DNA of 64,000 bases. Origin: a virus. The DNA is taken from the IMG/VR virus record IMGVR_UViG_3300045988_023742, positions 37,448-101,447 of that record; one strand, written 5' to 3'. Both the position numbers and the translations under genes were made by a program. Of this stretch, positions 333-37,499 are shown one piece after another. A model generated the notes under the pieces. That model did no database searches and was not told where the DNA came from. It saw nothing but the letters and a program-made list of their open reading frames with translations. The first letter of the stretch is position 1, and every line of letters begins with the position of its first letter.

Positions 333-3300
333 CTAACATGCTTTCATTGGATTACCATTTTCATCAAGAACCACAACACCATCTACTCTACAAGCTTGTC
401 TAAGCTCTTCTACAGAAGCTTTCAAATCAGCTTCTTCAGTATTACTTAAAGCAGCTTTAAGAACATTTGCTGTATAAAGTTCTCCTTGGTCATCTCTAAT
501 ACCTGCTTTCTCATAGGCTTTACTCATTTCTTCTGCTATTTCATTTATAACAGCTTCTCTGTTAAAGCTCTCTACAGTAGACTCTCTTTCTTCAGAACTT
601 TCTGATGTTGAACCTTCTTCAAAAGTTTCAGATACTTCTGTATCTTCTACTATATCTGAAGAAATATTATCACCAAAATACTGAAGAGACTGACCTTTAG
701 TACCAAGTTTATCTACCTTATGATATGTCATTACAGAAGTCTTTGTTTCATCAAAACTATCTGCCATATAGACAACTTGACCCTGACCAGTATTAATCTT
801 AATCATAGGAACAAATTGTCTTGACTTAGCCATCTTATTTTCTTTTAAAATGAAGTATTTACCATTTTCTTTATCAATCTTTGACAAATCTAAGGTAAAT
901 TCATTTCTAGCAACACCAGCCTGAATAGCAAGTGGCTTAAGAATATCTAAAACAGTTTTACTTTTAGCATCTAAGCCAAATCTCTTATTATCCAAGTGAT
1001 TAAGCATATACTGTCTAGCAAATGTTTCAGCATTGATGTTAAACTTATCTTCCATTATATCATTCATAAAGTCTACATAGCTTCTATCACCATCAGCAGT
1101 TGGTACTTTAATGTTCTCTTTAACTTCAGTAGGAGCAAGATTCATAAAAGCTTTAGGGCTAAAATTAAAACCTAACTTATAGAAGTTATATAAGAACAAA
1201 TCAGTAGCAATCTGTGAAGTCTCAGGATTTCTTGCTAAGTCTGCCCAGCTTTCTCTAATTTCATCCTTCATATAAGGAGCTAATCCTCCAATACCTTGGA
1301 TATTAATACTAATTTCATCAGTACTTTCACCAGTAGCAGGATTCTTAACTTCTTTAACTTCAGGAATCATATAAGCAAAGATAGGTATAGACTTCATTTG
1401 AGGATTAGCCTCTAAGTGATTAAGCAAATCTTTTGCAAACCATTTAGTGTAATACTCTCTTGTAGTCATTAAACCATGCTGAGTTTGTTTAGGAAGAGAA
1501 CCATTAAACTCACTTCTTTCTTGGTTACTTAACAAATAGACCATCATATCACTATGAATACTATTTATAGTATCAGCATCAAGACTTCCATAATTGACAA
1601 GTCCATTTAGAGTATTTCTAGCATTAACATAAGCCATCTTATTATAAGGGAAATATTTACTTAAAATCTCTAATGACTTTCTATTAGCATCAAACATAGC
1701 CTGCTCATAAGCAAATGGGTTACCCATCATAGTATCAAGATAATCTGAATTGCTCATAGTAGTAAGACTATTATCATCCATAATAGGAGAGTCAAGCTTG
1801 TCTGTCACTTCCATCTCAACATGACTTGCATCAGTACCAACTTCACTAAGATACTTTTGAACTTTAAGCTGCTGAGCATAAAGGTCACCAAATGTAGAAC
1901 CAACTGCATTAGATGCAGTAAACTTTGTTGATGTTACAAACTTAGATACATCATTAGCAACTGCTGAAATATCATTGAACAAATCAAGAACTTCAAGTTG
2001 TTCAGTAGCAAATGTATTGTTATCCATAACATTACTGCCTTTTTCTCTGAGAACTCTATCATTCAAAATATTCTTAGCAAGTTTATCCATAGAGAAATGT
2101 TCAGGATTTAGAGGCTCCTTTCTACTTCTAACAGATGCACCTTGATTCTTATACTTTTCTCTTACCTCTCTGATAGCAGTATCAATTCCTACACTATTAT
2201 TAAAGCTATATTCACATACCTCCTTGATAATAGGCTGATTAAACAGCATACCAATTTCAGTAGTAGTATAACCAATTCTAGCAAGAACTGCACCTGCATC
2301 AGCAGTAAGAGTATTAAGATTCATAAAGTTAAGAACAGGGTCTTTTACAGCATCCACAGAAGCAGACAGAAATTCAGCTACATTCAAGTCTACATCAACT
2401 CCATTAGGAGCATGAAGGAAGTCACTAAATCTACCATCACCGTAACTATGACCAGCAAACTCAATAGGCTTAGAAATCTTAAAAGACTTCATAAGACTAG
2501 CAAAAGCATGATTAGTATTTTGATTAGCAAATATACCAATAAGTTTACCTGCTACTTGATTCTGCTGATTATAAGTGATAATAGTCATAGGGTCAGAAGG
2601 GTCATAATTAGGCTCTGGGTCATTGGATTTATCCTTAGCTCTGTTATTAAGAGCTTCCCAATTAACCTTCTTATTATCATCTATAATACCCTCAGTACTA
2701 CCATATAGTAACTCTCTCATGATTCTAGCAGACTTAGAAGCATTAGCAAAACCACCTGGAGTAGTTCTTTGCTTCATAGTCTCTGGGTCCATCAATCTTT
2801 GTTGAATAAGATTAATAAGCATATTATTTCTAGCAGCTCTAGTATTTTCAAGCGGAGACTTATTAAAGTCATACTCTTCAAAATCTATAAGCTTAGAAGT
2901 ATCATCTGAGAATACAGCAGATAGTAGTGCATCAGTAGCTTCATCTGTAGATTGTTTCTTTAATGCTTTATATTCTCTTCTCATAAAGTAGAGCTTATCA
3001 ACATCAAAGTCAAAACCTGCAATAGTAGTTCCTTGAGCTGGTACTTTAATAGTACCTCCTGCTGTCTTTTGACTAAACCTCTTAACTCTAAGATTAAGCA
3101 TTGAATAGTCTCTCTCAGTTGGGATTCTATACGCTAGAAGACTTGTAGAACCAGGAAATCTATGCTCAAGTAATGAAATCTTCTTACCCTCAGATTCAAT
3201 CATCTTAAGAGTTCCATCAGGATTACAATATTCATTGAAATCAAGATGAACTTCATTACCTTCGCTATCCTTATATGATATGTCAAATGGAATCTCACAT

Positions 3301-6300
3301 TCTGCATAAAGAATATTTCCTTTACCATCTGTTACATACTTTAAATCTCCATCTTCTTCATAGCCTTTAATACCCATTGCAGAAACCTGAACAGCAGAAC
3401 CTCCTTTTATTTGCTGCTTATTCACAATCTTCTTGAACATACTGAAAGCCATAGCAGCAGCATCATGCTCCAAACCACCTTCAAACAAAGGCATAGCAAA
3501 CTTACCATTATCAACAGCATAGGCTAGAACATTGTCCATAGACTCTCTACTGTTATTAATAACACCTTGAATCAATTTCTCACTAAGTTTATTAGCATCT
3601 GAAATACCATCCTTAAAGCTATCAAATGATTCTAAGATGTTGGCAACTATCAATCCATTATAGAATGATACTAGGTTTCTACCATTGAGTTTAACTCTAC
3701 CATGATTTCCACCAAGATTTACAGTACCATCACCACCAATATAATTCATATAATGGTAGTCATCCATATTGATATTTGCCATAATAAGCTTTCTAACCTG
3801 TGTACCAAAGAGTTGAGAGCTATTAATATGCTCAGGAACATTAGTCTGTATTCTATAATCACCATAACTTAATTGGTGAACATAGGCTTTACTTAGAGCT
3901 TCACCTAGACTCTTTGCATCAGAAGCTTTTGAAATGTCAGTAGAACCAAATCCACCAACCTTAACAATTTTAGTAGAACCAACTAGGTCTACATTGTTAT
4001 CATCCATCCAATAAGCCATATCTCTAAGCTTACTACCTTTAGGTAAAAGTTCGGGAATTAACACTGCTTCAGCATACTTATGCTGAACTGGAATAATAAC
4101 TTTGTCCTTATCATTAAGAGCAAGCTTTTCATGAGTAAACATATAAGGTTTAATAGGCTGAAATACTACTGCCATAGATGCTATTTCAGCAAGTTTTTCT
4201 GATGGAATAGATTTTCCATTATAATCAACTTTAAGCTGTTCAATAGCCTCATATACTTTCTGCATTTCTTCAGTCCATTGTCCTGCCATACCCATTACTT
4301 TTCTATATGACCTAAGAGTTCTATAGCCTTGTCCATCAGTCAAAGTATTCTTTTTGTATGCATCATATACATCAGAATCTTTTCCATGAACAGCAGCAAT
4401 AGCTTCCATAAATTCAGGATTTGATTGTTCTGCATTTATATTAATATCATCAAAATAAACACATCTTTCAATACCATCCTCAGAGAATTTCTTACCATTA
4501 CTATCAATAGCTGAAAGACTTAATAGAGAACCAGGAGCATGAATCTCTTTGTATCTCTTCTGAAGGTCTTTAGTGCCTTTATAGAATGAAGTATCAATAG
4601 TCATGAGTTGAAGCTGATTAATAGTAGCAAACTTAACATTGTTATAAAACTCTGCAAGTTTCTCATCTAAGTTTTCAGATGTAACATCTTCTCCTAGATA
4701 AGTATATCTTTCAACCTCTACTTGCTTATTATTCCTATCAATCTCCTTTACCTTTACAGTTTCAAGAAGACCTAAGTTAGTTAACTGCTTCTTGAAATCT
4801 ATAAGAGCATCAGATAAATATGCAGATATAGCCTTCTTAACCTCTGTTTCAGTCGGTCTATCACTAAGCATACTAGAATACTTTCCTACTGTACCATCAG
4901 ATGCCTTATAATCTTTATTAAGGAATCCAAGAATACTAAAGGTATCTTCACTATCAGAAAAGTTTTCCACTTTACTATAGTTTCTAGAATCAAGCCATTC
5001 ATTAGTAGCTTTGACTAACTCTTGTCTTCTTCTTTCCTGTTCATAAGCATTATAGAGACCATCCATAATCTCTTCATTGCTGTATCTCTTAGCTCTAATA
5101 TATTTGCTTACACCGCTATCACCAAGAATAAATACAGGATATAATGCAGTATCAGCTTTATTGCTAAGTTCTTTGTCACTTCTGAACTCTGTAAGCATAT
5201 CAATCATGTGCTGTTTGCTAGTAAAGTTCTCAAAACTCATATCAGAGGTTCCTAAGAATCTCAGATAATCAAATTGAGCAGCAAATGTATCTTCTAAGCT
5301 TACATTAGTAGGAGTATCACAACACTTAAGCAATTCTTCAAGCCACTTATTTAATACCTTACCATTATAAGAGAAGAAAGGAGAGTCAAGATATTCATTA
5401 GCTAGGAAAGACCTAAGACCAGCTTTGTCATTTGCTTTAACATAGCTTTGAATCTTATCAAACTTATCACCCATAAAAGATGGATTTACCTGAGAGAAAA
5501 GAGTAATGTTGTTACCTTTGCTATCCTTATGTCTTACTCTAGACTCAAGTCTCAAGCCTTCTCTATTCTTGGTAATCATTTCATGTATCTTTCTGATTTT
5601 CTCCTCAAATACACCTTCTTTCCTGGAGTTCTGACCTTTAGCTCTAACCAATGACTTATATGGAATCTTTTCACCAGCTTCAAGTTTCTTCAACTGATTC
5701 TCAGATACACCATATTGAGCTAGTTCTTGGAGAGCATTAGTAAGTTTTCTAAGGTCTTTAGAATGATTCATTATCTCATCTAGAGTATCAGCATCCACTT
5801 CTACTCCAAGAGACTCTAAACTAGTTCTAAGGAACTCTCTTCTTTCAATAGAAGAGCCACCTCTAGAGTAGAACTTGCTTTGCTTTCCTCCTCCATACTG
5901 TTTTTGCTTATCAAAGATACTTCCAGTATTTTCCTTAGGCTGAGCAAGCCACTCATTTATCTGACTTAGAGTGTTCTTTAAGTTAGATACATTGACATTT
6001 CCTTTAGTATCAAATACAGAGGTCTTCTCATTAAGAGGCTTTCCAAGTATAATTCTAGACATAAAGGAACCTCCTAACAAATCTTCAACTCTATTAAGAA
6101 GTTTAGTCTTATACTTTCTAAGACCTTTCTTAGAAGCTTCCTTATCTTCAACAAGAATGGAATAAGGCTGAAAGTTCTTCTTGAAATCCCTAAAGAATTG
6201 TGTTCTAAGTTGAGGATTCTTTGTTAGAGCATCTAAAATTGGAATCATCCATACAGATTTAGCTTGTCCAGTTCTAGGATTTCTAAAAGCTCCCATCATT

Positions 6301-7344: not shown

Positions 7345-7971
7345 TTATATGTATATGCTGTCAGGATAATACAATAAAGTTCCCATGGAGTTCTTATGAA
7401 CATCTACATCAGGAAAATTACTATTAAACTCTTTAAGATTAAAGGGTCTTACAAGTAAGTGACAACCTTGTTTTGTTGGTATAATACCAGTAAGATATAA
7501 CTCTTCCCTAGTATCGCAGAATGGTAATGTAGGGTCTAACTTAAAATAGTTATCAAACCATCCTAAGAGTAACTCCTTTATTTCCATATTATCAACATCT
7601 ACAATCCATACAGGATTCCTTGAAGTTAATGCTCCTGCTGCACTATTAAGAGTCTTTCTTGGATTCTGAATATTACCTTCACATACTAATGAAGCAAGTT
7701 TTACTAACATAAGTTTCTGTAACTTTTCAAAGCTCTTTGGGCTTATATTAATATATGCTCTTGCTCCATAGTGTTCACAAAGAAGAATCACCTCAGGCAT
7801 TATTTTCCTGAGATGCTCTTCATTCTTTATGAAGTATGTTTTAATAGCTCCTTCCTTTACTTTTTCATCCTTATAGTCTTTTGCTCTACACACTATTTGC
7901 ATATGGCAGAATACCTTTGGATTATCCTTTGGTAGTAAAGGAGCTATTAGTTCTAGATTATTGATTATCAT
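7345..7971 (-). CDS. hypothetical protein (208 aa, start trimmed to MIINN...)
   Basis: The listed 268-aa ORF overlaps thyX by about 190 nt. The internal ATG at 7971 overlaps the thyX stop by only 14 nt. Confidence 0.55.
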   Translation of the reverse strand: MIINNLELIAPLLPKDNPKVFCHMQIVCRAKDYKDEKVKEGAIKTYFIKNEEHLRKIMPEVILLCEHYGARAYINISPKSFEKLQKLMLVKLASLVCEGNIQNPRKTLNSAAGALTSRNPVWIVDVDNMEIKELLLGWFDNYFKLDPTLPFCDTREELYLTGIIPTKQGCHLLVRPFNLKEFNSNFPDVDVHKNSMGTLLYYPDSIYI

Positions 7972-30338: not shown

Positions 30339-31124
30339 TTACTCAATGCCTTTAAACAATGTAGGCAAACTACCATATATAGGAAGCTTACCATCCCATT
30401 TATCAATCCACTGCTGCTTAAGAATCATAGGAGTCAAAGCCTGTGTTCTAAGTCTATTAGCTTCTGCTTCAGCCTGTGCTGCAACTACCTTTTTCTCTGC
30501 CTCTGCCTTTACTACAGCTAACTCATTCTGAGCCTTTTGTGCCTTTTGAATCGCAGCATTTTTGGCATTAACTGCATCAACAATAGACTGAGGATACTTC
30601 AATCCTGAAGTAAGTTGTTCTAGCTGAAAATTCTCCTTGAGCAATGCTTTAGACAGATGTGCTTCAATAGCCTTCTCTACCATATCTCTGTTTGATACAA
30701 TCTCATCAGTAGTATACTTATTGAGCTGGATTCTAAAGGCATCTTTTACATAGTTAAAGAGAGTTCCATTGATTACATCTTTCAGTTCCTTCCTATACTT
30801 CTTGAATACCTGAGGTGACTTACCATCAGCAATCTTCAATGAAATAGTAGGGTCAATACTAAACTCTGAACCATCCTTTGCATTAATTGTGAAAGCAGGA
30901 TAGTCTACTGTCTGGACATAAGTAGGATACTCATAAACCTGCTCAGTGAATGGATTATACCACACTGCACCAGTAACCAAAGATACATCATCTACACCCT
31001 TGTCAGAGCCATAGAGATTCACTTTAATACCTTCACAACCTGCATCTACTCTCTCATAACCACATGAGGACATTCCCAACATGGTAAATACTGCCATAAG
31101 GCACATAATTACTTTACTCTTCAT
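30339..31124 (-). CDS. SPFH/band-7 family lipoprotein
   Basis: Lipobox MLGMSSC and an Ala/Glu/Lys-rich coiled C-terminal half typical of SPFH proteins. Confidence 0.5.
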   Translation of the reverse strand: MKSKVIMCLMAVFTMLGMSSCGYERVDAGCEGIKVNLYGSDKGVDDVSLVTGAVWYNPFTEQVYEYPTYVQTVDYPAFTINAKDGSEFSIDPTISLKIADGKSPQVFKKYRKELKDVINGTLFNYVKDAFRIQLNKYTTDEIVSNRDMVEKAIEAHLSKALLKENFQLEQLTSGLKYPQSIVDAVNAKNAAIQKAQKAQNELAVVKAEAEKKVVAAQAEAEANRLRTQALTPMILKQQWIDKWDGKLPIYGSLPTLFKGIE

Positions 31125-32171: not shown

Positions 32172-32513
32172 TTAGTTGTAAATGTCATTGTCTGCACCCT
32201 TCTTCACCTTCTCCTTAAGGATTTCCTTTATAACTTCAAGGAACTTTGCCTTAGATATTGACTTTGCAGTATCCATAAGTGCCATAAACTCTTTTGGAGG
32301 CATAGCAATCATTACAGAGATGATAACAGTCGATACAAGAAGAGCACTCTTTCCAGAGAAGCCTTTAGTGAGGTTTACTACATCCTCAATCTTAACATTC
32401 TCTTCTTCGTACTGTTTCTTGTTCTCTTTATAAGCTGACTTAAATGCTTCAAGTACCTTCTTGATGTCTTCTTCATTGATGATAGACATCTGGTTTTTTT
32501 TGTTTGTTGCCAT
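32172..32513 (-). CDS. hypothetical protein
   Basis: 113-aa ORF directly downstream of the tRNA-like array. Confidence 0.45.
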   Translation of the reverse strand: MATNKKNQMSIINEEDIKKVLEAFKSAYKENKKQYEEENVKIEDVVNLTKGFSGKSALLVSTVIISVMIAMPPKEFMALMDTAKSISKAKFLEVIKEILKEKVKKGADNDIYN

Positions 32514-32563
32514 AATTTTGTTTATTAAAATTAATATGAAATTAATAAATGTTTTCTAAAAAT

Positions 32564-32675
32564 AGCTACTTAATTGATACATTTGAAGTGTATTGCATTA
32601 ACCACTATGCTAATTATCCATTCAGAAGAATAATATAGGACTTGAACCTATGAAATAATAGTATTGTAAGTAGCT
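32564..32675 (-). ncRNA. circularly permuted tRNA-like element with UCA anticodon, closed by module M7 helix
   Basis: Order on the minus strand: T-arm ATAGG-TTCAAGT-CCTAT, acceptor 3' ATTATTC, 8-nt linker, acceptor 5' GGATAAT, D-arm GCAT/ATGC, anticodon arm ATACA-CTTCAAA-TGTAT. Confidence 0.6.
32659..32671 (-). repeat. box M7 ACTTACAATACTA; helix 32667-32675 with 32564-32572
   Basis: AGCTACTTA is the reverse complement of TAAGTAGCT. Encloses the permuted tRNA-like element. Confidence 0.75.
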
Positions 32676-32679
32676 GAAG

Positions 32680-32805
32680 TAAGGCAGAGAAGAATCGAAC
32701 TTCTGTTACAGGTACTAAATTTTTATTAATATAAATTAGTATTGTAAGTATCATTAGATACTAATATTATTATAACCTGTGTCCTGACCACTAGACGACT
32801 GCCTT
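32680..32805 (-). ncRNA. tRNA-like gene (Glu-type scaffold) whose anticodon stem closes a 61-nt region carrying module M6
   Basis: AAGGCAG-TC-GTCT-AGTGGTCA-GGAC-A-CAGGT [61 nt] ACCTG-TAAC-AGAAG-TTCGATT-CTTCT-CTGCCTT-A. Confidence 0.6.
32737..32749 (-). repeat. box M6 ACTTACAATACTA; local hairpin 32757-32762 with 32747-32752
   Basis: AGTATC-TAAT-GATACT lies immediately 5' of the box. Confidence 0.7.
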
Positions 32806-32825
32806 ATGAAATTGGCACTATTCTT

Positions 32826-32899
32826 TATGCACTGATGGGATTGAACCATCTCTGATTGTACCAAAAAACAATTGTCCTAACCAATTAGACTAAACGCAA
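32826..32899 (-). tRNA. tRNA-Gln(UUG)-like with 8-nt anticodon loop, enclosed by module M5
   Basis: Stem ATTGT/ACAAT closes the loop TTTTTGGT (8 nt). D and T arms are canonical. Confidence 0.45.
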
Positions 32900-32903
32900 A
32901 ATT

Positions 32904-32916
32904 TACTATTGTAAGT
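32904..32916 (-). repeat. box M5 ACTTACAATAGTA; helix 32914-32921 with 32812-32819
   Basis: TTGGCACT is the reverse complement of AGTGCCAA. Encloses the Gln-like tRNA. Confidence 0.75.
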
Positions 32917-32925
32917 GCCAAAAAG

Positions 32926-33036
32926 TGGGGAAGGTAGGACTCGAACCTACATAGTGATAGTTTATGAAACCTATTGCTTATTGATTTAGTATTGTAAGTA
33001 TCTAAGATACTATTAAACCATTTTAGCTACTTCCCC
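32926..33036 (-). ncRNA. tRNA-like gene interrupted after the D-arm by module M4
   Basis: 5' part GGGGAAG-TA-GCTA-AAATGGTTTAA-TAGT. 3' part GTAGG-TTCGAGT-CCTAC-CTTCCCC-A. Acceptor is perfect; no clean 5-bp/7-nt anticodon arm. Confidence 0.5.
32987..32999 (-). repeat. box M4 ACTTACAATACTA; local hairpin 33005-33011 with 32997-33003
   Basis: AGTATCT-T-AGATACT lies immediately 5' of the box. Confidence 0.7.
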
Positions 33037-33053
33037 TTGTATAGTCACTATTT

Positions 33054-33126
33054 ATATACATGTTAGAATCGAACTAACTACACTTGAATTACAAATTCAA
33101 TGCTCTACCAAATGAGCTAATGCTAT
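33054..33126 (-). tRNA. tRNA-Thr(UGU)-like with weak acceptor stem, enclosed by module M3
   Basis: Perfect D, anticodon (TTGAA-TTTGTAA-TTCAA) and T arms. Acceptor ATAGCAT/ATGTATA pairs at only 4 of 7 positions. Confidence 0.45.
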
Positions 33127-33139
33127 TAGTATTGTAAGT
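33127..33139 (-). repeat. box M3 ACTTACAATACTA; helix 33137-33143 with 33043-33049
   Basis: AGTCACT is the reverse complement of AGTGACT. Encloses the Thr-like tRNA. Confidence 0.75.
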
Positions 33140-33165
33140 GACTGAATATCTGTAGACACTAAATT

Positions 33166-33239
33166 ATCACATTGTTGGAATCGAACCAACTACTATCTGC
33201 TTAAAAGGCTGATGCTCTAACCAAATGAGCTAAATGTTA
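33166..33239 (-). tRNA. tRNA-Lys(UUU), enclosed by box-helix module M2
   Basis: D-arm GCTC/GAGC, anticodon loop CTTTTAA, T-arm GTTGG-TTCGATT-CCAAC. Mismatches A29:A41 and A2:G71. Confidence 0.65.
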
Positions 33240-33242
33240 TAA

Positions 33243-33255
33243 TAATATTGTAAGT
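33243..33255 (-). repeat. box M2 ACTTACAATATTA; helix 33253-33260 with 33153-33160
   Basis: TAGACACT is the reverse complement of AGTGTCTA. Encloses tRNA-Lys. Confidence 0.75.
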
Positions 33256-33265
33256 GTCTAATGGT

Positions 33266-33296
33266 GAATGTAGGAGGTCTCTCTCCTCCTACATTC
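33266..33296 (-). other. perfect 12-bp GC-rich hairpin between units M1 and M2
   Basis: GAATGTAGGAGG-AGAGAGA-CCTCCTACATTC. No U-tract on either strand. Confidence 0.6.
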
Positions 33297-33299
33297 TAT

Positions 33300-33369
33300 T
33301 GATACTTGTTGTTGAACATTAATACGCTATTCTAATCTATGAAATACAGTTATAATGTTGTAAGTATCA
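33300..33369 (-). ncRNA. structured non-tRNA unit enclosed by module M1
   Basis: Outer helix TGATACTT/AAGTATCA and inner helix AACATTA/TAATGTT. No T-loop or D-loop signatures. Confidence 0.3.
33353..33365 (-). repeat. box M1 ACTTACAACATTA; helix 33362-33369 with 33300-33307
   Basis: TGATACTT is the reverse complement of AAGTATCA. Confidence 0.7.
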
Positions 33370-33377
33370 TTAGGTCC

Positions 33378-35201
33378 TTAAAGGACATTTTCTCTCACTA
33401 TGTCATATCTATTACTCCTGAACAATGACTGTAAAGGAGTATAAACATCCATAATATCCATATCTTTGAAGTTAGTTAAGAACTGCTCAATCTGTGCTAC
33501 ATTAGCAGGGATATAAATCATGTTCTCAATACCTTCAAATCTGTTGATAGAAGCACTTCTGAAGCCCCAATCACCATCTACATCAATAGCTACAATATAT
33601 GGCTTAAATCCAAAGTATCTTTGACACTTCATCATAAAGTCATTCATTGAAGCTTCAGGAGACCACAATGAGTTCCACTCACCATCACTGATGATAGTCC
33701 ATACAGGATAGTTCTTCAGAGCATCAAGTATCTGAGGGTTATTCTGACACTCCCTATGCAAATCATCAGGTATTTTACTTATGTTAGTACCACCACCTTG
33801 GAATACTGCATTACAGAAGTTCCTAATAGATTGATAGTTCTCACAGAAGCTCTTCTTAGGGTCAACAAAAGGAGTCTGCTTTACCTTTACTGTTTCACTT
33901 CTGATGAAAGAGTTTACAGAGTTATTCTTTCTGTCTATACAAGTATGCCAATGACTATTAGTATTGAAGAAACCAAGTAAGTTTCTACCATCATCATCTG
34001 GGTTCTTACATAAACATACAGAAGCTAAGAATGTAGCAAAGTTGAAAGGTTTACCTCTCATAGAACCTGAATCATCTATGATTACAAGACTATTATAAGG
34101 AAGATTGACCTTAGTCATGAAGGTTTCAAGCTTTAGCTCATCTACATTGTCATTACAGATGTCATTATATAGCTCTTTGAAATTAGTAGCTCCTGTATTG
34201 ACCTTAGCCTGCTTTGCAACTTTCTTCAACTTGATTTTATCCTCTTCTGTAGCTTGCCCCTGTCTAACTTTTTCCTCTAGAACTCTCTGTTCCTCTTGTT
34301 TAGACTCCTTGTACTTCTCCCATTCAGTGAGCCAAGGCTGGAACTTAGAATATTTATCCTTCTCAGTATCTTTAATCTTACTGTAAAGGATTCTATTCTT
34401 AACTCTAAACCTTGCCTGTGAAGGAAGCTTGTCAAACCAATCAATAAATGATTGTTTGTCAAACTCATTGATTTTACCTGTAGAGAATAGTACTGACTCA
34501 AGGTCACCATTGTAATCCTTTCTCCACTTCCTATAGTCCTTGAAGTTAGCATAGTTCTCATTTACTTCATACTCCCAACCCATAAGTTCTGAGAGCATTA
34601 TAAGCAACTTAACCTTATCTTCCATTACCTTTTTAGTCTCAGGAAGCATCTTGCTATGACCACTTCTTTTGCTTACTCTAGGAAGTGTCAAGAATTTAGC
34701 AACAAGAGTTTTATTGAAAGGATTATTACCATTGATAACCTTATAGAGATAGCTTGCAATAACCTCCCTATATTTTGCCTCAGCAAAGAGATTATGTATT
34801 CTAATAACTCTAGAGCCTTTAGTCTGTACTCTATTTCTGAACAGCAAATCAAAGCAAGTATATTCATTGAATAAACCTGCTTCAAGGAACTTCACAAATT
34901 GAGCTTGATGCTTATTCCACATCCAATCAAGAACTACTTGGAAACCTTCTCTATTGGCATTACCACCACTATCCTTCTTAACACCCTTAAAGATGTTATG
35001 CTGTCTAGCTGTAATATCACCAATTGAGAAAAGTAAACTAAAGAACATTTGCTTATGTTCTTTATTTCCTCGAACTTCTGACCAGCAAGCATCAAGTAAT
35101 GATGCATCAATTGTGTTGCCTACACTCTGAAAGAGTTTAAGGCAATTTCTTAATCCATAAAAAGGATTATCGTTACTTTTGTTTAACTTTACCTGTACCA
35201 T
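33378..35201 (-). CDS. vWA/MIDAS-domain protein with helical N-terminal domain (DUF2828- or TROVE/Ro60-like architecture)
   Basis: VIIDDSGSM (DxSxS MIDAS), later GGGTN and ISDGE. N-terminal roughly 370 aa carry the LLDACW...FFSLLFSIGD...DWMW...FDLLF pattern. Confidence 0.6.
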   Translation of the reverse strand: MVQVKLNKSNDNPFYGLRNCLKLFQSVGNTIDASLLDACWSEVRGNKEHKQMFFSLLFSIGDITARQHNIFKGVKKDSGGNANREGFQVVLDWMWNKHQAQFVKFLEAGLFNEYTCFDLLFRNRVQTKGSRVIRIHNLFAEAKYREVIASYLYKVINGNNPFNKTLVAKFLTLPRVSKRSGHSKMLPETKKVMEDKVKLLIMLSELMGWEYEVNENYANFKDYRKWRKDYNGDLESVLFSTGKINEFDKQSFIDWFDKLPSQARFRVKNRILYSKIKDTEKDKYSKFQPWLTEWEKYKESKQEEQRVLEEKVRQGQATEEDKIKLKKVAKQAKVNTGATNFKELYNDICNDNVDELKLETFMTKVNLPYNSLVIIDDSGSMRGKPFNFATFLASVCLCKNPDDDGRNLLGFFNTNSHWHTCIDRKNNSVNSFIRSETVKVKQTPFVDPKKSFCENYQSIRNFCNAVFQGGGTNISKIPDDLHRECQNNPQILDALKNYPVWTIISDGEWNSLWSPEASMNDFMMKCQRYFGFKPYIVAIDVDGDWGFRSASINRFEGIENMIYIPANVAQIEQFLTNFKDMDIMDVYTPLQSLFRSNRYDIVRENVL

Positions 35202-35219
35202 TCTGCTAATGTTTTATTT

Positions 35220-35232
35220 TATTTTTGTAAGT
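35220..35232 (-). promoter_or_regulatory. box M8 ACTTACAAAAATA in vWA-gene leader; helix 35230-35236 with 35171-35177 encloses the start codon
   Basis: CGTTACT is the reverse complement of AGTAACG (codons 8-10). The ATG at 35201 lies inside the enclosed 47 nt. Confidence 0.5.
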
Positions 35233-35288
35233 AACGTAGTTAGGATATTCTTTTCTATCTTTGAACTATATATGTCTTCCTTATACTA

Positions 35289-37368: not shown

Positions 37369-37499
37369 AGTTGGGGCTTTTTATTCTTCAAGTGTGTGCC
37401 CTCTTCTATTCCTTCTTCACACTTATGGCTATAGAAGTAACTAGCTAGCTTAGTACTTTAGATTCACCATACTCTTTACACTTTGCAACCCTCAAAGTG

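Follow-up and report, generated by a model that had tools for sequence, protein, structure and literature searches.

The window analysed here is a 64,000-nt stretch of a viral record (IMG/VR record IMGVR_UViG_3300045988_023742, positions 37,448 to 101,447) and consists of crAss-like phage DNA. Its minus-strand early/replication block contains a gene for a 607-aa protein with a C-terminal vWA domain, followed on the same strand by an array of seven small units that hold tRNAs, tRNA-like bodies and a non-tRNA RNA. Each unit carries a conserved 13-nt box together with a helix next to it (the box-helix), and an eighth copy of this element is located in the leader of the gene itself (Table 1). The nature of the box-helix, its linkage to the gene, and the possible role of the protein as its partner are described below.

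Five units of the array (1, 2, 3, 5 and 7) are closed by a distal arm. Units 4 and 6 are tRNA-like bodies with a local hairpin (GUAUC-loop-GAUAC) placed directly 5' of the box, so the description of all seven as stem-closed, given in an earlier note on this DNA, holds for the former five only. The permuted tRNA of unit 7 has the anticodon UCA. A GAUAC unit of the unit-1 type is found after the stop codon in most relatives, with a poorly conserved payload. The stem of the 11-bp hairpin behind unit 1 covaries in relatives (UAUAGGAGG/CCUCCUAUA, UAUAAGAG/CUCUUAUA, GCAGAGGG/CCCUCUGC), which identifies it as a second conserved RNA element. Searches of the array for small ribozymes and other Rfam families gave no match at E values up to 10.

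The odd tRNA of unit 5 (ARAGORN 'tttg') is also present at positions 6208-6283 of a related locus, L007, whose vWA protein is 71% identical to that of the window. When the insert of unit 6 is taken out with its last 6-7 nt left in place, the loop reads U-UUA-G, a putative ochre-suppressor-like anticodon (read by eye).

Table 1. Features of the vWA gene, its leader and the downstream array, with the RNA ligase gene of the window.
Feature	Position in the window	Strand	Basis
Open reading frame, 607 aa, ATG start; predicted divergent DUF2828/DUF7788-class vWA protein	33378..35201	(-)	ORF list, homologues, hhalign, phrog_850
Helical N-domain, residues 1-365	34107..35201	(-)	AlphaFold model, conserved columns
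C-terminal vWA domain with complete MIDAS; DxSxS codons at 34062-34076	33381..34106	(-)	invariant residues, Foldseek, hhalign
Leader box-helix: 5' arm CGUUACUU (35229-35236), box ACUUACAAAAAUA (35220-35232), 3' arm AAGUAACG (35171-35178)	35171..35236	(-)	fold and conservation
Unit 1: GAUAC, box, non-tRNA payload of ~47 nt, GUAUC; begins 12 nt past the stop codon	33301..33368	(-)	
11-bp hairpin after unit 1: AAUGUAGGAGG-AGAGAGA-CCUCCUACAUU, no U-tract	33267..33295	(-)	sequence
Unit 2: AGACAC, box, tRNA-Lys(UUU)-like (33165-33240), GUGUCU	33154..33260	(-)	ARAGORN; Rfam tRNA 55 bits; fold z = -4.0
Unit 3: AGUCAC, box, tRNA-Thr(UGU)-like (33055-33126), GUGACU	33043..33143	(-)	Rfam tRNA 51.3 bits; fold
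Unit 4: tRNA-like body (acceptor GGGGAAG/CUUCCCC, T-arm) with internal hairpin AGUAUC-UUA-GAUACU and box (32987-32999)	32926..33036	(-)	fold
Unit 5: GGCAC, box, tRNA-like RNA with 8-nt anticodon loop (UUUG) (32825-32900), GUGCC	32813..32920	(-)	ARAGORN tRNA-???; Rfam 44.6 bits
Unit 6: cloverleaf whose anticodon stem encloses a 61-nt insert with hairpin GUAUC-UAAU-GAUAC and box (32737-32749)	32680..32806	(-)	RNAfold z = -3.1
Unit 7: permuted tRNA; AGCUAC, box, T-arm, loop-closed acceptor, D-arm, anticodon arm (loop CUUCAAA), AAGUAGCU	32564..32675	(-)	RNAfold; ARAGORN after rotation
RNA ligase, 242 aa	9902-10630	(-)	phrog_548, E 3.5e-19

The box ACTTACAAWAHTA, with at most one mismatch, occurs eight times in the window, always on the minus strand: seven copies lie at 32659-33365 and one at 35220-35232. 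In shuffled sequences the mean was 2.3 copies and none of 100 shuffles reached eight, with a degenerate 13-nt pattern that was written so as to include the leader copy. The 8-nt core ACTTACAA is present in 13 copies against 4.75 expected, and the five of them that lie outside the region represent background.

For comparison, 61 loci encoding relatives of the protein (35-98% identity) were used. In these loci the gene strand carries ACTTACA 351 times and the opposite strand 28 times, and a closing helix of at least 7 bp accompanies 88% of the gene-strand copies (25% for the opposite strand and 29% for random AC positions). The arms vary between units (GAUAC, GACAC, GUCAC, GGCAC, GCUAC, GUUAC, UUCAC, UUUAC and others), with the partner always matching, and they covary over distances of 50-190 nt though their sequences differ. 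The inner end of the helix, ...ACUU against AAGU..., is constant, and unpaired ACAAUA comes directly after it. G-U wobbles are seen on the gene strand, where the opposite strand would have C-A mismatches, and the spacers between units measure merely 12-60 nt. The strand bias, the matched arms, the constant inner end, the G-U pairs and the short spacers together point to an RNA structure within one long transcript rather than to a DNA site or a set of promoters. Judged from these comparisons, the box-helix can be described as a genuine strand-specific RNA element, under selection at the level of RNA.

A signal acting in DNA, either a phage promoter/start element or a recombination or homing site of mobile tRNA cassettes, with the inverted repeats being incidental, would be consistent with the location of the box 5' of every unit and of the gene, always along the direction of transcription, with the start of the relatives' tRNAs 13-17 nt after the box, and with the HNH endonucleases that are frequent near tRNAs in these phages. 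We consider it very improbable, however, as such a signal does not explain why distant and differing arms covary or why the gene strand alone tolerates G-U pairs. In addition, the 5' arm lies upstream of the box and must be transcribed for the helix to matter, the spacers are too short for separate promoters, and none of the other 19 tRNAs or remaining genes of the window has the motif upstream. An analogy with integron attC sites was also considered and rejected: the inverted repeats are similar in size, but the conserved letters are not the same and there is no integrase.

The element is closely linked to the gene. At least two gene-strand units are located within 3 kb in 56 of the 61 loci, and the remaining five are either truncated contigs or belong to the two most distant homologues. 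In the other direction, from motif to gene, viral contigs were scanned for exact 14-mer matches and filtered for strand-biased arrays; the 119 matches listed were mostly single chance matches, with four loci carrying true strand-biased arrays among them, and all four of these loci encode the protein. In the closest annotated genomes, those of uncultured phage cr116_1 and IAS virus (Steigviridae, Asinivirinae), the flanks of the region have matches, yet neither the 607-aa gene nor the array behind it is present, and no unit was found in 100 kb of cr116_1. Within the window, no box-helix unit was detected outside 32.5-35.3 kb, including at the 19 ordinary tRNA genes found elsewhere by ARAGORN.

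The leader copy had been placed by the earlier note 18 nt before the ATG, and its coordinates and spacing are confirmed. In the leader, CGTTACTT (35229-35236) pairs with AAGTAACG (35171-35178) over 8 bp, with the AUG (35199-35201) in the loop. The pairing had been assigned to codons 8-10; it is present, with a 3' arm that begins at the third base of codon 8 and ends at the first of codon 11. Of 60 related loci, 50 have a box-helix less than 130 nt away from the start codon, always within approximately -70 to +35 of the AUG. The enclosure of the start codon, which had likewise been proposed, is observed in the window and in ~40 loci, whereas in ~9 loci the helix closes 10-70 nt upstream of it. 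The arms show compensating changes (CGUUAC/GUAACG, UGUUAC/GUAACA, AGGACAC/GUGUCCU, AGACAC/GUGUCU, AAGAUAC/GUAUUUU, UUUUCAC/GUGAAAA, UUUUUAC/GUAAAAA), with which the helix is kept down to ~35% protein identity, the remaining leader being unrelated between lineages. The constraint is also visible in the coding sequence. Wherever the 3' arm falls on the Ser-Asn codons, these read AGT-AAC, without exception among 24 distinct sequences; in the rest of these genes, 25% of the Ser codons are AGT and 32% of the Asn codons are AAC. In L062 the same 3' arm is made by Ile-Val-Thr codons in another frame. Loss of the leader helix in related phages had been named as an outcome that would speak against the proposal, and the helix is conserved in them.

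Another element, ATAGTTCAAAG, is located at 35259-35269 (minus strand) within ...AGGAAGACAUAUAUAGUUCAAAG...AAUAUCCU, upstream of the leader box and ~60 nt upstream of the ATG. It is conserved in relatives to ~59% identity and may be the promoter of the gene or another RNA element. As a general promoter motif it was rejected, since it is not repeated elsewhere in the window.

The payloads were surveyed with ARAGORN in 146 units with a payload of 60-150 nt. A tRNA in normal order is present in 60 of them, and 32 further units show a tRNA only after circular rotation of the payload; rotation controls with shuffled, reversed and coding sequence gave 0 of 86 each. Unit 7 and 31 further distinct units (L013-L071) are permuted tRNA genes, in which the T-arm and the 3' acceptor strand are followed by a short loop, the 5' acceptor strand, the D-arm and the anticodon arm, with the box-helix at the ends. 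The anticodons of the permuted units are ordinary (Asn, Lys, Asp, Ile, Cys, Thr, Phe, Val, Leu, His, Tyr and others). The presence of ordinary-looking tRNAs in many units of relatives indicates that the units are not merely decoys. In the titles and abstracts of the literature found, no permuted tRNA genes in phages are reported, and neither the box-helix motif nor its presence on the leader of the protein turned up in the literature searched.

Permuted tRNA genes, with the transcript ends forming a bulge-helix-bulge (BHB) helix, are said to have been described by Soma and colleagues in 2007 and in later work, reportedly from red and green algae and one archaeon. They resemble the genes seen here in having the 3' half before the 5' half, with the acceptor ends joined by a short loop, and in the pairing of the transcript termini in a helix at the break point. 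Those described here differ in belonging to bacteriophages, in having a terminal helix with another conserved motif and no BHB evident by eye, and in a break within the variable-loop region; the motif also flanks unpermuted tRNAs and an mRNA start.

In a related locus, L009, a tRNA with a CTA anticodon (amber-reading; ARAGORN) is found at 3382-3450, just upstream of the 45%-identical homologue and with a box before it at 3290, which hints at suppressor tRNAs within the arrays.

The 607-aa protein was modelled with AlphaFold from a diverse alignment (pLDDT 82.9, pTM 0.75); this model replaced an earlier one, based on a shallow alignment (pLDDT 73), for which no significant PDB match was obtained. 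Residues 1-365 are nearly all helical, with a single beta-hairpin at 123-137, and residues 366-607 adopt an alpha/beta fold. The open reading frame and its motifs DDSGSM (376-381), GGGTN (469-473) and SDGE (505-508) are present as first reported, and the helical character ascribed to the N-terminal ~370 residues agrees with the model. The full MIDAS set (D376, S378, S380, T472, D506) is invariant in 71 family members (20-58% identity), which indicates that the site is under selection. In the N-domain, the conserved basic/aromatic positions are R66, H68, G79-G80, K169, R179, R264, R306 and K333. An assignment as a HEPN-type nuclease was rejected because the conserved R66-x-H68 misfits Rx4-6H (by eye).

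Foldseek relates the model with probability 1.0 to many vWA domains, including those of MDN1 MIDAS, C2a and ITIH1, and in the viral structure library (BFVD) the best full-length matches are phage VWFA proteins of ~480 aa. The family comprises ~1,250 members at 90% clustering, or 164 clusters at 50%. The homologues are nearly all found in crAss-like phage contigs, and the members examined sit on phage contigs of ~100 kb or more. A tblastn search with the window protein found nothing in 50,697 deposited phage genomes, and Pfam, a PDB sequence search and NCBI-style names gave nothing direct for it.

The architecture had been attributed by the earlier note to either the Ro60/Rsr or the DUF2828 family, which were not distinguishable by eye; the profile comparisons favor the latter. 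With hhalign, the family aligns to four phage DUF2828+DUF7788 proteins at a probability of 99.8% (E 5e-28, residues 77-602 onto 99-495), and residues 77-365 of the N-domain align to the DUF2828 N-region. Phrog_850 ('RNA-binding protein') is matched by 53 of 71 relatives (best E 3.7e-21), and Pfam identifies PHROG 850 members of deposited phages, for example Aeromonas LAh_6 gp126 and Campylobacter CP81 ORF141, as DUF2828 + DUF7788 proteins, with E values of 1e-24 to 1e-52 for LAh_6 and CP81. The DUF2828+DUF7788 proteins (PIRSF015417; PHROG 850) share with the window protein the MIDAS-containing vWA C-domain and a C-terminal ...SNRY motif, and several of their genes are located near tRNA arrays, RNA ligases or a CCA-adding enzyme. 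The window protein differs in being ~110-150 aa longer and in falling under the threshold of either Pfam model (PF11443 and PF25043, no match at gathering score for it or for the 71 relatives). From these alignments it is assigned as a divergent member of the DUF2828/DUF7788 class, Ro60-like in layout and in the vWA domain, and not as a TROVE protein.

Proteins with DUF2828/DUF7788 are widespread in phages, bacteria and eukaryotes, including plants. The family was known beforehand, as an uncharacterised one, as were the Ro60-Y RNA systems. In the titles and abstracts of the literature found (plants, a tardigrade genome), no function or RNA partner of DUF2828 is described. Four genes of phages unrelated to that of the window illustrate its surroundings: the bona fide DUF2828/DUF7788 gene of Campylobacter phage CP81 (L004, 3394-5780) adjoins a 5-tRNA array, that of Aeromonas phage LAh_6 (L003) is located near an Rnl2 ligase, and that of PHA46 (L200) lies between an RNA ligase and a tRNA nucleotidyltransferase (CCA-adding enzyme); the fourth, in Vibrio phage D479, has no RNA-related neighbour of such kind. 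Ro/TROVE proteins of jumbo phages have likewise been presented as a platform for RNA repair that has a tRNA-like partner (PMC7824862).

In respect to Ro60, six phage proteins with TROVE and vWA_Ro60 domains by Pfam (PF05731 + PF25045) served as the reference. The N-terminal residues 1-365 of the family align to the N-region of these proteins with an hhalign probability of 0.1%, and in the full-length comparison the vWA part alone is aligned (95%, E 3.6e-8, residues 370-571), as is also the case for the DUF2828 proteins. No match to Pfam TROVE was obtained for the window protein or for any of the 71 relatives, while the same search recovers genuine phage Ro proteins at E 1e-38 to 1e-50. The sole full-length PDB match of the pLDDT-83 model is Rsr of D. 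radiodurans (2nvo; E 1.6e-4), and it is weak, with TM scores of 0.29/0.34 and a root-mean-square deviation of 14.9. Such a match weakly suggests, at most, a common two-module build and not a common ring.

The RNAs allow a similar comparison. In YrlA Y RNA, the T-arm, the loop-closed acceptor and the D-arm are arranged in this order inside a terminal stem; Ro60 contacts mainly the 5' strand of that stem, with a GGUCCGA-like site (PMC4201824). The YrlA-like tRNA mimicry with a closed acceptor, to which the earlier note had likened the array, applies to unit 7 and to the permuted units of relatives, the other units having the normal order. The YrlA model of Rfam (RF02553) gave no match at 32500-33420 of the window with E up to 10, and its matches to permuted units beside the gene in L033 and L068 are sub-threshold (39 and 31.9 bits, gathering score 69). 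A GGUCCGA-like Ro-binding motif was not found, the conserved 5'-strand sequence being NNNACUUACAAUA.

The likeness to Ro60/Rsr with YrlA, including the 'Ro-like RNA binding proteins' of actinophages, consists of a helical N-module followed by a C-terminal vWA domain with MIDAS (the vWA domains can be aligned), a gene adjoining small RNAs in which the two ends pair into a stem that has a conserved motif on its 5' strand, and, in unit 7, an RNA body resembling a tRNA in which the T-arm comes ahead of the D-arm and the acceptor is closed by a loop. Real phage Ro genes are found in tRNA-rich regions too. The window differs in an N-domain that shows no detectable TROVE similarity and superimposes poorly, in the motif (ACUU/AAGU and ACAAUA), in the many units per locus (1-2 in the Ro60 systems), in that most units hold a complete or a permuted tRNA whose anticodon is normal and whose anticodon arm is kept, and in the copy within the mRNA leader of the protein itself, for which no counterpart is described in Ro60.

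An ordinary phage Ro-Y RNA module, as in mycobacteriophages, with a true Ro60/Rsr orthologue and YrlA-class Y RNAs, would fit the two-domain build, the position of Rsr as the only full-length PDB match, the occurrence of real phage Ro60 genes among tRNAs, and the arm order of unit 7. It is nevertheless extremely unlikely, considering the absence of Pfam TROVE from all 72 proteins, the N-domain result with the TROVE profile (0.1%), and a tblastn search in which Ro60 reached 356 phage genomes, none of them crAss-like. The YrlA matches are nil in the window and sub-threshold in the relatives, and the conserved strand motif is ACUUACAAUA instead of a GGUCCGA-like Ro site (PMC4201824). Membership in the Ro60/TROVE family can thus be regarded as largely refuted.

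The constant end of the helix and the adjacent constant single strand could be read by a sequence-specific RNA-binding protein or by an RNase, and the genomic linkage makes the vWA protein the best candidate for this reader. In the proposed mechanism, the protein would be the dedicated partner of an RNA signal that consists of a 7-10 bp closing helix with the inner end ...ACUU/AAGU... and the unpaired ACAAUA following on the 5' strand. This signal brackets every member of the array next to the gene, which is very probably co-transcribed and comprises tRNAs, permuted tRNAs, tRNA-like bodies with an internal signal, and small RNAs other than tRNA. By holding the paired ends of these precursors, the protein would form a ribonucleoprotein for maturation, end-joining or protection, in a manner comparable to Ro60/Rsr with tRNA-like Y RNAs, and its occupancy of the copy at its own translation start would feed back on translation. 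We infer the identity of the binder (this protein rather than another factor), the role of the complex and the autoregulation; binding of the box-helix RNAs by the protein, with autoregulation, is the best explanation and is held with middling confidence.

Translational autoregulation through a target mimic in the own leader is known for ribosomal proteins, for RegA and gp32 of T4 and for the MS2 coat protein. The window shares with these systems a motif of the presumed RNA targets that overlaps the initiation region of the protein's own gene, as a candidate case of such regulation; it differs in that the helix of ~9 relatives closes 10-70 nt upstream of the AUG instead of around it.

Several observations weigh against this mechanism. 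The gene of the distant loci L070 and L072 has no unit within 3 kb of it, and in relatives some units precede other small open reading frames, so that the motif may be a general punctuation for another factor. As a single sequence the leader helix is weak (approximately -6 kcal/mol, z = -0.8), and it is taken as real because it is conserved, not because of its folding energy. With an N-domain that has no sequence similarity to TROVE and a poor match to Rsr (TM ~0.3), the analogy with Ro is architectural only. Finally, the 485-aa AAA ATPase encoded directly after a 36%-identical vWA homologue (L005, 8278-9735) would point to a protein-directed role. The combination of a vWA protein with a MoxR AAA+ ATPase is a classic chaperone pairing, and the likeness to such pairs lies in the MIDAS vWA domain and in this one ATPase; no ATPase gene adjoins in the window or in the three closer relatives inspected (L007, L009, L011).

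These points are in part shared by another account, in which the box-helix is a processing or punctuation signal of a long early transcript, read by a host RNase or another phage protein, perhaps together with an RNA ligase; this factor would release, circularise or splice the tRNAs. The vWA gene would then be a bystander cistron, and its protein, unrelated to the motif, could be, e.g., a MIDAS-mediated adaptor or a MoxR-type co-chaperone. The spacers of ~12-60 nt make co-transcription of the units very probable, the permuted tRNAs, whose anticodons are ordinary, must be cut and probably joined before they can function, and the phage encodes an RNA ligase; the units ahead of other small open reading frames, the AAA ATPase behind the distant homologue and the non-TROVE N-domain are also in agreement with it. 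This account is possible, yet on the unlikely side: in the loci and scans examined the motif is found solely where the gene is, an RNA ligase is also annotated in cr116_1, where the motif is missing, the arrays are not accompanied by any candidate nuclease, and the leader copy stays at the start of the gene across deep divergence, even amid unrelated leader sequence.

The permuted tRNAs speak for cutting, and perhaps joining, at or near the motif, and the proposed complex may clamp, trim, join or shield the RNAs. A bolder form of this proposal, which we regard as doubtful, is that the box-helix would be an RNA joining/processing signal with which crAss-like phages express permuted, interrupted and leader-trailer-clamped tRNA genes, and that the vWA protein would be its specificity subunit, adjusting its own synthesis by way of the copy on its mRNA. 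If true, it would represent a bacterial-virus counterpart of the archaeal/eukaryotic bulge-helix-bulge, together with the first permuted tRNA genes of phages and the first function for DUF2828. A covarying RNA motif kept across deep divergence offers a concrete, testable RNA partner for a branch of the uncharacterised DUF2828/DUF7788 proteins, and its presence on tRNAs and permuted tRNAs of abundant human-gut phages points to a way of maturing or protecting tRNAs in bacterial viruses that has so far gone unrecognised. The system could also bear on the supply of phage tRNAs in the face of host anticodon nucleases, on the evolution of Ro60-like ribonucleoproteins, and on phage tRNAs missed by tRNA gene finders, as with the 32 units that ARAGORN sees after rotation only.

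In the surroundings of the module, cr116_1, which lacks box-helix units, also annotates a 242-aa RNA ligase (gp059). The two ligases are known by annotation and size alone; should they correspond, the ligase would not be specific to the module. A scan for sigma-70 promoters and terminators was uninformative (17 sites, 19 expected), and a literature search for crAss promoter motifs gave nothing relevant. A Band-7/prohibitin-like gene is located at 30339-31124 of the window, ~2 kb downstream of the array. In Rhodococcus phage Trina (L198, 1143-3996), a genuine Ro60 gene is preceded by a 209-nt 'tRNA-OTHER' pseudogene, which is probably its Y RNA, and followed by a gene for a Band-7-like lipoprotein. 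The resemblance of the two neighbourhoods is probably a coincidence, because IAS virus has a Band-7 gene without the vWA gene. In three related loci a phage-encoded tmRNA gene lies a few kb from the vWA gene (L005, 925-1301; L023, 1295-1690; L042, 1689-2201; ARAGORN and Rfam, 51-70 bits), and a group I intron is present in L045 at 7405-7609 (Rfam 51.9 bits, barely over the gathering score).

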